Shown: piece after piece, positions 32,320 to 37,411 of the stretch | Layout of the letters: each line of letters starts with the position of its first letter | Numbering within the stretch: position 1 is the first letter of the stretch | Assembly (NCBI GenBank): GCA_018819405.1 | Contig: JAHJQF010000001.1 | Coordinates: 34,097 to 98,096, forward strand | Direction of reading: 5' to 3' | DNA length: 64,000 nt | DNA from: Patescibacteria group bacterium | GTDB taxonomy: Bacteria; Patescibacteriota; Patescibacteriia; UBA1558; GWA2-36-10 | The notes under the pieces: generated by a model | Seen by the model: only the letters and a program-made list of their open reading frames with translations | What the model was told of the DNA's origin: nothing | The model's database searches: none | Made by a program: the position numbers and the translations under genes

Positions 32320-32366
32320 TTTTTATTAAAAAGGGGTAGGTCATTCATGAATGAATTTCCTACCCC
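32320..32366 (-). terminator. Rho-independent terminator closing the GC-rich island operon
   Basis: GGGGTAGG-18 nt-CCTACCCC hairpin 2 nt past the HAD gene stop; U-run on the minus strand. Confidence 0.6.
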
Positions 32367-32368
32367 GA

Positions 32369-33031
32369 TCAACGCAATCTTAATGGCCAATCCAATTGAC
32401 CGACCACAAAATCAGCTTTAGCTGAAAGAACATTTTGGTACTTAGTATTTGGTCTTTTTACCTCCACAACTAGCGCCTCAGGAAATCTCGTCTTTACCTC
32501 ATCGATATTTTTTGGATTATCATCCAAAAAAATAATCGGCGAGGTACCTATAATTTCCATATAGCGCCACTTAACTCCTGATGTAACCGTGAAGCTGTGG
32601 CAAAGATCACTAAGCTTGCTTCCGACAAATTTAGCAAGCTGGAAATTTAGATCACCATGAGTTAATATAACCACCTCACAACCTGATCTTATCGCAGAAC
32701 CAAGAAAAAGCTCAGAATCATCGAAAACGTACAAATGACCTTTTTCTCTAACATATTTCTGCATTTCTACTACAACTTTTCTAATTCTGTCTAGCTCAAT
32801 TCTTTGACTTCTTTGAACCATCAGAAAAAAGTTAAACAGCAGGTTGTCTGGGGGAACTAAAGCGAGAGATGGATCAAGTAAATCCCTACTAATTCCACAC
32901 GCTTCACACAATTCGTACAGATCCCGATAAAGCGCATCGGAATCAAATACAGTTCTATCAAAATCGACAATAAGCAGTTCCTGACTACTTGTATTCATTA
33001 ACGAAATCCTCCTTTGTGGAACATCAAACAA
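32369..33031 (-). CDS. HAD-superfamily phosphatase/hydrolase (GC-rich island)
   Basis: Motif I IVDFDRTVF (DxDxT) and late FLDDNPKN motif. Confidence 0.7.
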   Translation of the reverse strand: MFDVPQRRISLMNTSSQELLIVDFDRTVFDSDALYRDLYELCEACGISRDLLDPSLALVPPDNLLFNFFLMVQRSQRIELDRIRKVVVEMQKYVREKGHLYVFDDSELFLGSAIRSGCEVVILTHGDLNFQLAKFVGSKLSDLCHSFTVTSGVKWRYMEIIGTSPIIFLDDNPKNIDEVKTRFPEALVVEVKRPNTKYQNVLSAKADFVVGQLDWPLRLR

Positions 33032-33080
33032 TTAAGAGGGATAAGGCTCAATCATGCATATAGCACAATTGAGCCTTGGG

Positions 33081-34127
33081 TTACAACTTGGATGTCTCAT
33101 GGATTCTCTCCACGAGTGTTGGAATGTATTTCTTCTTACACTCGCCACAAAGCGAGGTGCCGGAAACACATTCCTGATACATCCGCGTTGTTGCGTCGTA
33201 AGGTTGTAAAACCTCGGCGATCTTAAAGAAAGAACAATTATGTGGGTTACCACCTTTCCGACGCTGTTCTTCTGGAGTCGAACGACCACCGGAAAAACTT
33301 CGTCGCAGTTTACGCTCAATCTGCTCGCGAGTCTCGTCTAGAAGAATGAGTGATTTTGAGTTCTTCACGCTCATTCTCTGTCCAGGATCTTCCAAGCTTG
33401 GAAGAAGCAGGCGATACGAGTAACTCGGCAACGGAAGCTTAAGTTGACGAGCAATTATCTTCGTAGCTTCCGCGTGTGTGATCTGGTGGATGTCCGATAG
33501 GACAAGAGTCGGACGATTCGGAAAAAGTGTTGTCGGCAAAAGAAACGCTGCGGCTGTGATGGCAGGAACACGAAGCGTAGTAACAGAAACACCCTCGTCC
33601 CAACCATATAGTTGCAAAACCTTTCTTGCCGACAGACACGCTCCTGAACGATTGTCGAGAACTTGGAGTTCCCGACAATCTTGGTCAGAGAAACTCACTG
33701 AAGCATCTGGTAACGAATCACCTATAAACTTCAGATATGTCTCTCCAAACCTCGCCATCTCAATCTTTGCGTCATTGGCACTTAGAAGCCGATCCGCCTC
33801 GTACCCAGCAAACACGAAAATTGGTTGACCACCCTGTTGGACGAGCCAATACAATTCTCGCATTAGTGTGAGATGACCGAGGTGGAATGTCGCACCAGGA
33901 CGCATACCAACTAACACCGAGAACTGCTTTCCAATTACCATTGCTTTGAAGACAGGCAGTGGGTTTTGAAAAGCCCAAACACTGACACGAGCGAAGCCTT
34001 CCCAAATATCGGTAAAATTGTCGGTCAACGCCCCCGCTATTGTCTCGAGAGAGAATTGTTTAACTACGTTGGTTGCTTCAGCAGCAGCCAATATTGCTCT
34101 TTCTCCCAGCCAGTTTTCAAGCGCCAT
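33081..34127 (-). CDS. Divergent TrpRS-like class I aminoacyl-tRNA synthetase paralog with a C-terminal C-x21-C-x6-C-x2-C (putative Fe-S) cluster
   Basis: HIGH-like GMRPGATFHLGH, KMSKS-like SVKNSKSL, and C-terminal NCSFF...QECVSGTSLCGECKKK. Has an N-terminal extension of about 70 aa. GC-rich. Confidence 0.65.
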   Translation of the reverse strand: MALENWLGERAILAAAEATNVVKQFSLETIAGALTDNFTDIWEGFARVSVWAFQNPLPVFKAMVIGKQFSVLVGMRPGATFHLGHLTLMRELYWLVQQGGQPIFVFAGYEADRLLSANDAKIEMARFGETYLKFIGDSLPDASVSFSDQDCRELQVLDNRSGACLSARKVLQLYGWDEGVSVTTLRVPAITAAAFLLPTTLFPNRPTLVLSDIHQITHAEATKIIARQLKLPLPSYSYRLLLPSLEDPGQRMSVKNSKSLILLDETREQIERKLRRSFSGGRSTPEEQRRKGGNPHNCSFFKIAEVLQPYDATTRMYQECVSGTSLCGECKKKYIPTLVERIHETSKL

Positions 34128-35139: not shown

Positions 35140-36070
35140 TCACGGTTTCCTCATCGGGGAATCCTCCGAACATCATTGAGGCTACTGATAACGCGACATC
35201 TTGGTAAGGCTGTAGATGACTAGGAATGAACGCATCATATTCTATAACGAGCCGGTTTCGATCCACGCGCACAACTGATTCGGAAGCCAGCACAACACAA
35301 CGTGTTGACCACCATCCGTAGAGATGCGCAAGCATCATTCGCCAGTCATGATGCGAACCAGACCATTCCCAGTCAACGCAGTACCACATATCATCCTCGC
35401 CCATCACAATGTTGCTGGGCTGAGGATCTCCGTGACACACCACGCCATTTGTCGGCTTTCTGACACGAGCAACCTCCTCGAACGATTCCGAGATAGAATG
35501 GTGCTCGTTACCATTTACGACAACTGGGATGTTCCAACAGTCGGCTATTTTTACTCCTCCAACCACCGCAGAAACAACACCATACTTGATTCTCTGCAAG
35601 CGAGCAGGGAAGAATCGTGGACAGAGTGATTCTTGAAACTGGTGTTGCGAAGTTTTCCACATGCATGCAAGCGATTCCACGACATCTTTCCAGACGGCGA
35701 GCAAACGGCTATGCGGCATGTCAGAATTAACAATGAGATGATGCAAGGTATTTATACCCCTGCATTCGGAGATCATGACCTCAAAACCGTCTACCACTTG
35801 GCACCACAAAACTCGCGGAAGGTGATTCCGCAGATATGGTACCAGCAATTCTCTTCTACCGATCTCGTCTACAAGCGAAACACGTGATCCAGTCACGCAC
35901 TTCACCGCGTAGAGAGAATTGGTGCGAGAATGTCTGAAAATAGACACTCTCGCACCGGAGCTGCCGGGAAAAGAGATGATGACGAGTTCGGGGTCGTCTT
36001 GTTCTCCAAGCATCATTCTCATCGCTTTCGTCGCGACGCGAACGATCTCAGACATGACAACCTCCTTCAA
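34967..36070 (-). CDS. APH/choline-kinase-type (protein-kinase-fold) phosphotransferase
   Basis: [14 protein letters not shown] (Brenner HGDxxxxN) and VDWEWSG (D-x-E-x-xG) motifs. Start overlaps the TrpRS stop (ATGA). Confidence 0.65.
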
Positions 36071-37086
36071 TCGTTTGTGAAGTAGTCGATGTGCATCGCC
36101 TTACGCACTTCATTGATAGTTTCCGCAGCAACTTTGCGAGCCACTTCGGTCCCTTCTTTAAGAATGCACATCACCGCATCCAGGTTTTTGGCGAGTTCTT
36201 CACGACGAGCGCGAATCGGATCGAGCTCCGCCAATAGAACTTCCTGGAGCCGCTTTTTGACCTTGACGTCTCCGAGACCGCCACGACGATAATGATCCTT
36301 CATCGCCTCGAGAGCTTCCTTGTCCGGATCGAAAGCATCCAAGTATGTGAATACTGGATTACCTTCTACCGCACCAGGGTCATCCACGCGAAGATGCATA
36401 GGATCAGTGTACATCACCTTCACTTTCTGACACACCTCATCGACGCTATCAGAAAGCGAAATGACGTTGCCGAGCGACTTCGACATCTTGCCATTGCCGT
36501 CAGTCCCAGGAAGACGAGAGACTTTTGAAAGCAATGCTTTCGCTTCAACGAGAACTGAAGATTGGTAGATGCGATTGAAGCTACGTACGATCTCGTTGGT
36601 TTGCTCAATCATCGGCAACTGATCTTCACCTACAGGTATCAAATTCGCTTTGAAAGCGGTGATATCTGCTGCTTGACTCACTGGATAGACCAGAAAGCCA
36701 GCCGGAATACTCGCTCCAAATCCGCGTTGCTTGATCTCGTCCTTGACAGTCGGATTGCGTTGCAAGCGCGAAACCGTCACAAGATTGAGATAGTACACCG
36801 TGAGTTCGGCAAGCTCCGGCACAAGCGATTGGATAAAGATTGTCGTCACCTTCGGATCGATACCCACAGCGAGATAATCCAACGCCACCTCAAGAATGTT
36901 CTTGCGAACCTTCTCCGGATTCTCCGCGTTGTCCGTGAGAGCCTGAGCATCAGCGATGATGACGAACTGCTTGTGAGTATGCTGAAGCTCTACTCGCTGC
37001 CGCAACGAGCCAACATAATGGCCCAAATGCAGTGGACCAGTAGGACGGTCACCAGTCAAGATGACCTTCTTCGTACTTGTGTTCAT
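36067..37086 (-). CDS. trpS: Tryptophanyl-tRNA synthetase, second (GC-rich, island-borne) copy
   Basis: [18 protein letters not shown] (HIGH), KMSKSLGN (KMSKS); 339 aa full length; GC visibly higher than the native trpS at 57712. Confidence 0.9.
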
Positions 37087-37320
37087 CTGTTTTCCCCTTT
37101 CTTAGAGCTATTTTGCTTGACTTGAATTGTCAAGGTTCTGAAACACGAACCAGAATTTAATGTCACTGGTATGACATTTTATTTTACGATAAAACATACA
37201 TTTTGTCAAGCATATATATTCATATATTATTACAATATCCGACTAAGGTCAAACAAAAAAACACTATCAAAATAAATAGTATTTTTATAGGTAATCGGGT
37301 CATCCGATACTAAATTGTCG

Positions 37321-37411
37321 TGGCGGAGAGGACAGGATTCGAACCTGCGAGGGATTTTACTCCCTACTCGCTTTCCAAGCGAGCGCACTAGACCAACTAT
37401 GCGACCTCTCC
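37321..37411 (-). tRNA. tRNA-Ser(GGA): tRNA-Ser (anticodon GGA), long variable arm, CCA encoded
   Basis: GGAGAGGTCGCATAGTTGGTCTAGTGCG-CTCGC-tTGGAaa-GCGAG-TAGGGAGTAAAATCCCTCGC-AGGTTCGAATCCTGT-CCTCTCCGCCA. Confidence 0.8.

Follow-up and report, generated by a model that had tools for sequence, protein, structure and literature searches.

Why would a bacterium from the Candidate Phyla Radiation (CPR), a group with genomes of about 1 Mb and almost no recognised secondary metabolism, carry a second tryptophanyl-tRNA synthetase (TrpRS) in a GC-rich block together with a small-molecule kinase, a nucleotidyltransferase (NTase) and a TrpRS paralog? The block lies in a 64,000-nt stretch of a Patescibacteria group bacterium (contig JAHJQF010000001.1, positions 34,097 to 98,096 of the forward strand), hereafter the window, and had been singled out in a first-pass annotation made from the sequence alone. 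We find that it is one copy of a widespread operon and not a one-off island: the same string of genes occurs at more than 50 independent loci, and the arrangement is therefore not due to chance. In our preferred interpretation, whose chances we put at slightly below even, the operon would make a tryptophanyl nucleotide or sugar-phosphate conjugate, and its full-length TrpRS would supply Trp-tRNA and/or immunity.

GC content amounts to 0.45–0.52 across positions ~33000–37100 and to 0.30–0.38 on either side (400-nt windows), for a window mean of 0.374. The high values belong to a tightly packed minus-strand quartet at 33081–37086 that encodes, in order, TrpRS (GC 0.502), the kinase (0.493), the NTase (0.482) and the TrpRS paralog (0.479). 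GC at third codon positions (GC3) is 0.44–0.55 in these four genes and near 0.30 in most other open reading frames (ORFs) of the window. Genes for a HAD phosphatase and, beyond a terminator, a peptidase of family S51 follow, neither of which is GC-rich (0.38 and 0.315, respectively), so that the compositional block measures about 4.0 kb (33043–37086) and closes at a 15-bp hairpin. Proteins encoded in the window match MBU1202486–494 exactly, and the features on which the analysis relies are the following:

36067–37086, minus strand: full-length bacterial TrpRS, 339 aa (TIGR00233; HLGH and KMSKS)
34967–36055, minus strand: small-molecule kinase of the APH/methylthioribose (MTR)-kinase/choline-kinase fold, 362 aa
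34147–34962, minus strand: pol-beta-superfamily NTase, 271 aa from GTG 34962 (NCBI start at ATG 34947)
33081–34127, minus strand: archaeal-type TrpRS paralog, 348 aa (alignment; under all NCBIfam TrpRS cut-offs)
33043–33077, minus strand: hairpin (15-bp inverted repeat) closing the GC-rich quartet (repeat search and sequence)
32369–33001, minus strand: HAD-superfamily phosphatase with DFDRT motif I (ATG at 33001)
32328–32366, minus strand: intrinsic-terminator-like hairpin and T5, directly 3′ of the HAD stop codon (read from the sequence)
31684–32274, minus strand: peptidase S51/class-I glutamine-amidotransferase-like hydrolase (Pfam Peptidase_S51, 1.1e-26)
37087–37215, minus strand: promoter-like TTGACA-17-TAAAAT and operon leader of ~85 nt (promoter scan, 11/12)
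37321–37411, minus strand: tRNA-Ser(GGA), upstream of the island (ARAGORN and Rfam)
57712–58665, plus strand: bacterial TrpRS of host composition (GC 0.365; Pfam tRNA-synt_1b, 3.8e-71)

Gene order and identities agree with the first-pass annotation in ORF, Pfam and NCBIfam searches. The tRNA-Ser gene that it placed at one border is real (ARAGORN, Rfam), as is the terminator hairpin at the other, whose arms GGGGTAGG and CCTACCCC span 32333–32366 and precede T5. Its 5-kb island of about 50% GC in DNA of about 30% had to be redrawn: the quartet does reach 0.48–0.50, while the background is about 0.37 and the HAD gene, at 0.38, falls outside the block of about 4.0 kb. The proposed gene string holds, and the conserved unit runs further, to the S51 peptidase gene at 31684–32274, which is a separate transcription unit travelling with the module. 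Neither an ATGA overlap of the TrpRS and kinase genes nor an NTase start inside the kinase gene withstood inspection of the junctions. The TGA of TrpRS is followed by AGGAGG and by the kinase ATG at 36055, 11 nt past the stop codon; behind the kinase TAG come AAGGAG and GTG 34962, which is most likely the NTase start and lies outside the kinase gene; and behind the NTase TAA, AAGGAG precedes the paralog ATG at 34127. These junctions read as a classical operon.

How far does this gene string extend beyond one genome? The contexts of three distant paralogs, from Berkelbacteria, Woesebacteria and an unclassified Patescibacterium (paralog 37% identical), display the identical order TrpRS, kinase, NTase, paralog. 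A kinase motif scan of species-representative genomes yielded 35 loci, and ORF profile searches at 30 kinase-seeded genome loci detected the NTase in about 28, TrpRS in 27 and the paralog in 26. An NTase-seeded metagenome scan added 28 further loci with the identical gene string, bringing the co-occurrence of kinase, NTase and TrpRS, which the first pass had recommended searching for in other genomes, to the total of more than 50 loci given above. The quartet is found in Falkow-, Parcu-, Woese-, Berkel- and Saccharibacteria among the CPR, and also on contigs binned as Bacilli (reduced metagenome-assembled genomes, MAGs), Micavibrio and Gammaproteobacteria. Fourteen loci are actinobacterial (Streptomyces, Wenjunlia, Micromonospora, Allosalinactinospora, Streptomonospora, Myceligenerans and a Pseudonocardiaceae MAG); gene order is permuted in 12 of them, the usual actinomycete order being HAD, NTase, paralog, TrpRS, kinase and an F420-class luciferase-like oxidoreductase. 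The actinomycete TrpRS paralog is fused to a HisC/CobD-like pyridoxal phosphate (PLP) aminotransferase, which is a separate gene at two other loci (L012 and L069 in our numbering). Searches with the three families other than TrpRS retrieved almost only module-type homologues, at 26–100% identity. The suggestion that the arrangement is undescribed is upheld insofar as no description of the module was found in the full-text literature searched; with its wide distribution in the CPR and its presence in Actinobacteria, the module is not peculiar to a single reduced genome.

Conservation extends upstream of the operon. The leader at 37091–37210 (minus strand) is 74% identical over 122 nt to positions 3448–3555 of L012, and TTGACA lies about 40 nt upstream of the ATG in most module loci. 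A second leader subgroup (L006, L009, L047, L053 and L059) contains CTCTTTG...CAAAGAG...CAAAGAG, which could form alternative hairpins. The upstream region may be a conserved regulatory leader. It matches no Rfam family, and on this ground we ruled out a T-box or other known tRNA-sensing leader RNA.

The TrpRS encoded by the first gene is a canonical bacterial enzyme. It scores 248.4 bits against TIGR00233 (cut-off 176.75) over residues 6–331, its HLGH and KMSKS motifs are intact as in 1yi8, and it shares 64% identity with Deinococcus radiodurans TrpRS II (1yi8/2a4m; 450 bits). Annotated trpS genes of Enterococcus, Acinetobacter, Deinococcus and Burkholderia, as well as copies on Staphylococcus epidermidis plasmids, are 62–67% identical to it, and matches at 67% come from unannotated phage records of Listeria that are probably host DNA. 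We rejected a special auxiliary TrpRS II type because the resulting Enterococcus/Listeria/Acinetobacter/Deinococcus-TrpRS-II clade supplies Enterococcus, Listeria, Acinetobacter and Burkholderia with their ordinary trpS. A further TrpRS, already expected at first pass, is encoded at 57712–58665; this host-like copy, presumed to be the housekeeping enzyme, shares only 35% identity with the island TrpRS (tblastn). The island thus places an extra aminoacyl-tRNA synthetase (aaRS) alongside a distinct housekeeping copy, as ascamycin-like self-resistance clusters do.

Two side observations concern these synthetases. A TrpRS 62–63% identical to the island enzyme is encoded alone on 15- and 43-kb S. 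epidermidis plasmids (L041, p1457, 7995–9002, and L071, 11995–13002), with an adjoining IS6 transposase gene in p1457, which is the pattern of a putative mobile target-replacement resistance gene. The housekeeping TrpRS gene is flanked by two GC-rich plus-strand ORFs, 56951–57541 and 58801–59427 (GC 0.52 and 0.58, GC3 0.64–0.67), without Pfam match; the latter may be non-coding because a long antisense ORF overlaps it.

The TrpRS paralog at the end of the quartet falls under every curated TrpRS cut-off (best NF008926, 119 bits for a cut-off of 320; TIGR00233, 86 for 177). Its family comprises about 75 clusters at 37–85% identity, of which the named members are all from CPR and most are unnamed metagenome sequences, and scores drop from 215 to 89 bits between this family and genuine archaeal TrpRS. 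In an exhaustive profile search of 1.84 billion representatives, about 40 clusters (50% identity) scored above ~150 bits, and several of the matches are proteins of 560–790 aa. Residue roles were taken from Pyrococcus horikoshii TrpRS, in which the Asp of AIDQ binds the ribose 2′-OH (PMC2831299). The HIGH motif is kept, H82, G84 and H85 being invariant in 27 CPR members and HxGH being present in the actinobacterial fusions as well, while the KMSAS motif is not: KMS has become RMS in CPR paralogs and RGS or RAS in actinomycetes. AIDQ is replaced by D(I/A)xQ (DIHQ in the window), with H, N, K, M or other residues in place of the Asp, so that the ribose-binding residue is lost throughout the family and a new Asp stands two residues earlier. 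The indole-recognising Tyr is replaced by L/V, the Gln by V/I and the carbonyl-binding Lys by A, as similarly happens in genuine crenarchaeal TrpRS (3a04 type), and the Glu that contacts the amino group is kept in CPR paralogs. A Cys-x21-Cys-x6-Cys-x2-Cys (Cys4) motif is retained, whereas the whole family lacks the final helix of the anticodon-binding domain, which leaves the C-terminal domain incomplete: paralogs end 10–15 residues past CGECK, archaeal TrpRS runs about 25 more, and in actinomycetes the aminotransferase domain begins where the paralog anticodon domain stops. With HxGH kept, KMS and AIDQ altered and a helix lost, this protein is a remodelled paralog and not a third ordinary TrpRS; it is probably still nucleotide-binding.

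Saccharibacteria modules encode, in the position of the paralog, an unrelated protein of about 340 aa (L018, 11809–12867; L019, 11808–12836; L021, 8736–9596) that carries a CxxC...CxxC zinc ribbon and a GRSSxxKN motif. It has no Pfam, NCBIfam or PDB match and may be a non-homologous replacement of the ligase.

The kinase possesses the catalytic Lys, the HxDxxxxN loop and the metal-binding Asp of the APH kinase fold, and these catalytic residues are invariant across its homologues. No Pfam match was obtained; its top fold matches are MTR kinases, which are ribose kinases, and it lies outside curated APH resistance families (APH_3p, 23.5 bits for a cut-off of 205). In the NTase, the pol-beta core of GS, DxD and third carboxylate is complete, with G34, S35, D46, D48 and D84 invariant. 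Its fold matches Tam41, which adds CMP to a phosphate, at 10% sequence identity, and by sequence it belongs to no defined ANT/Tam41 family, Pfam placing it outside the Tam41 family. By analogy, the pair suggests that an alcohol is activated to give a nucleotide-linked intermediate, a conversion of the kind that LicA/LicC and AmgK/MurU carry out. We rejected a defence system, since the PADLOC anti-phage models gave no significant match (best PDC-S09, E 0.005, on the NTase core) and PHROGs matched TrpRS only.

Which other enzymes accompany the module? The HAD gene recurs in six CPR or Bacilli loci, either after the TrpRS paralog (L007, L008, L015 and L020) or near the module (L012 and L021), and in actinomycetes, where it lies upstream of the NTase gene; the L015 copy matches HAD_2. 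An S51 peptidase gene adjoins the module at seven loci (L005, L007, L008, L012, L014, L057 and L069), and a NUDIX gene is found near it at four (L005, L008, L023 and L024). In L069 the order is TrpRS, kinase, NTase, paralog, TylF-type methyltransferase, HisC-like aminotransferase, GFO/IDH/MocA oxidoreductase, a small ORF and S51 peptidase. The TylF-type sugar O-methyltransferase of this locus is homologous to that of Streptomyces loci, and the oxidoreductases beside the aminotransferase are non-homologous, of the GFO/IDH/MocA type in CPR and the F420-class luciferase-like type in actinomycetes. A full-length PrnB homologue adjoins the module in L020 (E 6e-23 to 2v7i) and BLAST-clustered ones do so in L018 and L019; because PrnB is a tryptophan-binding haem enzyme, they link the module with the chemistry of tryptophan. 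The window has the paralog, kinase, NTase and HAD genes; those for the aminotransferase, oxidoreductase, methyltransferase, NUDIX and PrnB-like enzymes are confined to relatives. Judged by their families, these accessories fit biosynthetic tailoring enzymes and not drug-inactivation enzymes. Linkage across phyla, aminotransferase fusion, non-homologous oxidoreductases, the methyltransferase and the HAD and NUDIX hydrolases together fit a small biosynthetic pathway with variable tailoring.

Genes of other kinds also border some copies. In low-GC "Bacilli" MAGs a RelA/SpoT gene (HD, RelA_SpoT and TGS domains) lies just upstream of the module; in L014 (399–1832) it overlaps the kinase start by 4 nt, and in L015 (7248–8744) an ORF of 250 aa separates it from the kinase gene. 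A bacterial-type tRNA-Trp gene (CCA, G73) is located downstream of the module in L001 (11033–11105, about 2 kb away) and L005 (9782–9857, about 0.7 kb away), two distantly related CPR loci, a proximity commoner than expected for a single-copy tRNA.

How did the operon come to lie in this genome? The best reading of the sequence comparisons is that it is horizontally mobile, with recent transfer into several CPR hosts. Positions 31703–37100 are 79.7% identical in nucleotide sequence over 5.4 kb to a Falkowbacteria contig (L007), and a Parcubacteria contig (L008) aligns with this segment at 83% nucleotide identity; since the homology includes the HAD and S51 genes, the travelling unit has six genes. 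Other contigs share 33043–37065 only, a four-gene form that breaks exactly at the hairpin, and the blastn match to L006 begins at 33043. The cassette exceeds its flanks by 10–14 GC points in the window and in L006, L007, L009, L053 and L054, and is compositionally native in other hosts. As the first-pass annotation had remarked, no ORF for an integrase or transposase was found near the island in the window. We also found no flanking direct repeats and no repeat of the tRNA-Ser 3′ end at the far border. Lacking an integrase and an att-like repeat, the locus does not have the make-up of a tRNA-targeted island, of which it shows just the deviating composition and the nearby tRNA gene, and we rejected integration at tRNA-Ser; this gene is a neighbour of the island, not a demonstrated attachment site. 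Carriage of the module by phages or plasmids was rejected as well, given that the kinase has no match in phage records, plasmid records or IMG/VR and that the only plasmid matches of the TrpRS paralog are haloarchaeal trpS genes on megaplasmids.

Next to tRNA-Ser, an unannotated GC-rich spacer of 290 nt (37412–37700, minus strand) extends from a phosphoenolpyruvate synthase gene to the tRNA gene. It has a fold z-score of −2.25 and no Rfam match, starts with GGAGAGGTCG, identical to 10 nt of the tRNA-Ser 5′ end, contains CATAGTTGGTC again inside, and may represent either a small RNA or what is left of a tRNA-Ser. Elsewhere in the window, a GC-rich gene (0.475) in AT-rich surroundings at 28922–30796 (plus strand) encodes a secreted-looking M23 metallopeptidase of 624 aa with an FxLYD-like C-terminal domain; it was probably acquired horizontally, and its product is possibly a cell-wall hydrolase. 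Six tRNA genes (Asn, Met, Met, Pro, Ala and Leu) are clustered at 11669–12897 (minus strand), and the window contains no tRNA-Trp gene.

What, then, might the operon do? The substrates, the sequence of reactions, the kind of product and the role in immunity that follow are inferred from the enzyme set. The kinase would phosphorylate a hydroxyl group on a scaffold (sugar, ribose or amino alcohol), and the Tam41-like NTase would turn the phosphorylated scaffold into a nucleotide-linked intermediate. Onto this the TrpRS paralog would load tryptophan or a derivative, either via its own adenylate, HxGH being kept, or from Trp-tRNA. The HAD phosphatase, with the NUDIX and S51 hydrolases of relatives, would trim or de-protect the product, and HAD and S51 may serve to mature or detoxify it. 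The full-length TrpRS would supply Trp-tRNA and/or sustain translation in the event that the housekeeping TrpRS is blocked by a product resembling Trp-AMP or the 3′ end of Trp-tRNA. Beside resistance, the first pass had offered an aminoacyl-nucleotide biosynthesis module, and the new evidence favours such a module with a self-resistance aaRS.

Several points weigh against such a pathway. To our knowledge, CPR bacteria are not antibiotic producers, and no exporter or transporter gene was found among the ORFs at 31600–37400. L016 has the kinase, NTase and paralog trio without TrpRS. In many bacteria the only, housekeeping TrpRS belongs to the main clade. The TrpRS of the modules is drawn from at least three lineages, and the Gln that replaces Bacillus stearothermophilus His43 in the main clade is not found in every module copy, so that there is no common resistance signature. 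APH and ANT fold matches are barely weaker than the top matches of the kinase and NTase. Finally, the minimal form of four to six genes, without oxidoreductase, aminotransferase or methyltransferase, leaves the chemistry less defined. A more specific version of the biosynthetic pathway, in which the mobile operon, common to ultra-small CPR episymbionts, reduced or predatory bacteria and actinomycetes, makes a tryptophanyl-nucleotide or aminonucleoside mimic of Trp-AMP or the Trp-tRNA end, with the remodelled paralog as ligase and the second TrpRS as donor and immunity factor, seems to us doubtful.

The operon could also be a resistance or detoxification cassette, as the first-pass annotation had proposed from antibiotic-inactivation folds: an insensitive TrpRS would replace a blocked one, the kinase, NTase and hydrolases would inactivate a Trp-mimicking antibiotic and the paralog would bind or sequester it. 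The lone plasmid copies of the island's TrpRS clade beside IS6 in S. epidermidis agree with this proposal, as does the foreign composition of the island in several hosts. Alignment of the main clade moreover reveals Gln at the site at which H43N mutants of Bacillus-type TrpRS gain indolmycin resistance; we rejected His43-to-Gln as a resistance signature owing to its absence from some module copies. Four-gene linkage across phyla is unneeded by single-step inactivating enzymes, and the aminotransferase fusion, methyltransferase, oxidoreductases and PrnB-like enzyme of relatives are biosynthetic in character. The kinase is far under the APH family cut-offs, no cassette-type plasmid copies were retrieved with the kinase and paralog as queries, and the kinase lacks phage or IMG/VR copies. 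A resistance cassette is improbable in light of these data, and no link to indolmycin or chuangxinmycin resistance emerged for a TrpRS that belongs to an ordinary trpS clade.

Alternatively, the module might act on translation, the paralog charging a tryptophan derivative or modifying a tRNA nucleoside in the manner of GluQRS, and the kinase and NTase acting on tRNA or aminoacyl-tRNA. PSTK acts in this way on Ser-tRNA(Sec), and an aaRS with a kinase and a PLP enzyme follows the logic of tRNA-dependent selenocysteine and cysteine synthesis. The paralog retains most of the anticodon-binding domain and the Cys4 motif, and a Rel/SpoT gene adjoins the module in L014 and is found one gene upstream of it in L015. 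The tRNA-Trp(CCA, G73) genes of L001 and L005, no more than 2 kb from the module, leave room for a tRNA-linked function at the expense of our preferred biosynthetic interpretation. Opposed to this are the loss of the last anticodon-domain helix across the paralog family, the lack of a dedicated tRNA in the operon both in the window and at most loci, the lack of a T-box or tRNA-sensing leader in Rfam searches, and partners of small-molecule types (HAD, NUDIX, TylF methyltransferase, HisC-like aminotransferase and PrnB); we assign a translation-linked role a low probability. Lower still are the chances of tryptophan salvage or catabolism in auxotrophic symbionts, in which an indole compound taken from the host would be turned into tryptophan, or tryptophan degraded, with the extra TrpRS channelling tryptophan into translation. 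CPR bacteria are auxotrophs, HisC-type enzymes can be aromatic aminotransferases, and a PrnB/IDO-superfamily enzyme and a kynurenine-formamidase-family cyclase are encoded near some modules. The window form, however, lacks an aminotransferase or oxygenase, salvage needs neither an NTase nor a second, remodelled TrpRS, and the module is also found in prototrophic Streptomyces and Micromonospora.

A compact operon exchanged between several CPR classes and common to Streptomyces and Micromonospora would offer a rare handle on the chemistry between episymbionts and their hosts or competitors, and because the actinobacterial version resides in cultivable strains, the pathway is directly testable. 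To the known aaRSs it contributes a family of TrpRS paralogs, some 40 clusters at 50% identity, whose ribose-binding motif is systematically rewired and which, in one phylum, is fused to a PLP aminotransferase. A TrpRS-directed compound, if made, would be of antibiotic interest. Should the operon indeed make a mimic of Trp-AMP or the Trp-tRNA end, aaRS-directed natural products would gain a new class and the CPR their first widespread pathway of antibiotic type, with the host's translation as a plausible target.

How does this operon compare with known systems? CPR bacteria have operons of TrpRS-A, tRNA-Trp(A73) and ORF1, in which some TrpRS-A are predicted to bind a 4Fe-4S cluster (Mukai et al. 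2017). There, as in the island, an archaeal-type TrpRS homologue coexists with a bacterial TrpRS in CPR; we rejected identity between the two because their gene content differs, the former including a dedicated A73 tRNA-Trp and ORF1 and neither kinase nor NTase, and the tRNA-Trp found near the module being of the G73 type. Other class I aaRS paralogs whose anticodon-binding domain is reduced or absent, namely MshC (a CysRS paralog that attaches Cys to an amino sugar) and GluQRS/YadB, use an adenylate to acylate an acceptor other than the tRNA 3′ end. Both derive from aaRS families other than that of the paralog, and the MshC operon is without partner aaRS, kinase or NTase. Of the activating pairs mentioned above, LicC and MurU are GlmU-type NTases, unlike the pol-beta-type island NTase, and Tam41 itself is set apart by its 10% identity and by Pfam. 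The puromycin enzyme set (pur10, pur4, pur7, pur3, dmpM and pur6) builds an aminoacyl-aminonucleoside, and the extended modules recall its logic by enzyme type, not homology, with a GFO/IDH/MocA dehydrogenase, aminotransferase, NUDIX, phosphatase, methyltransferase and amino-acid ligase; the module ligase differs in being a TrpRS paralog, and the minimal form in the window lacks the dehydrogenase, aminotransferase, NUDIX and methyltransferase.

Closer parallels are offered by mupM, borO, agnB2, albomycin SerRS2 and Streptomyces TrpRS1, each a second, distant aaRS beside biosynthetic genes with a housekeeping copy elsewhere, as in the island; the module differs from such self-resistance clusters in that its TrpRS lineage changes between hosts. 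We know of no counterpart of the APH-fold kinase and Tam41-like NTase of the island in the acm (ascamycin) or sbz (SB-203208) clusters. The closest whole-system precedent is the AcmD/AcmF/AcmE set of ascamycin, alongside which we group SbzA of SB-203208. In Streptomyces sp. 80H647, the self-resistant extra AlaRS AcmD supplies Ala-tRNA, the AlaRS-like AcmF attaches the amino acid to a nucleoside, and it is released again by the hydrolase AcmE (PMC12945691). As in the island, a full-length extra aaRS stands beside a remodelled aaRS paralog within a cluster; acm relies on a class II AlaRS and sbz on a class Ia IleRS, whereas the island combines a bacterial TrpRS with an archaeal-type paralog that keeps HxGH, and the hosts of its module, unlike those of acm and sbz, include CPR bacteria. 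The operon, of which we found no earlier description, is in this respect a variation on a known theme, small-molecule clusters in which an aaRS stands together with an aaRS paralog.

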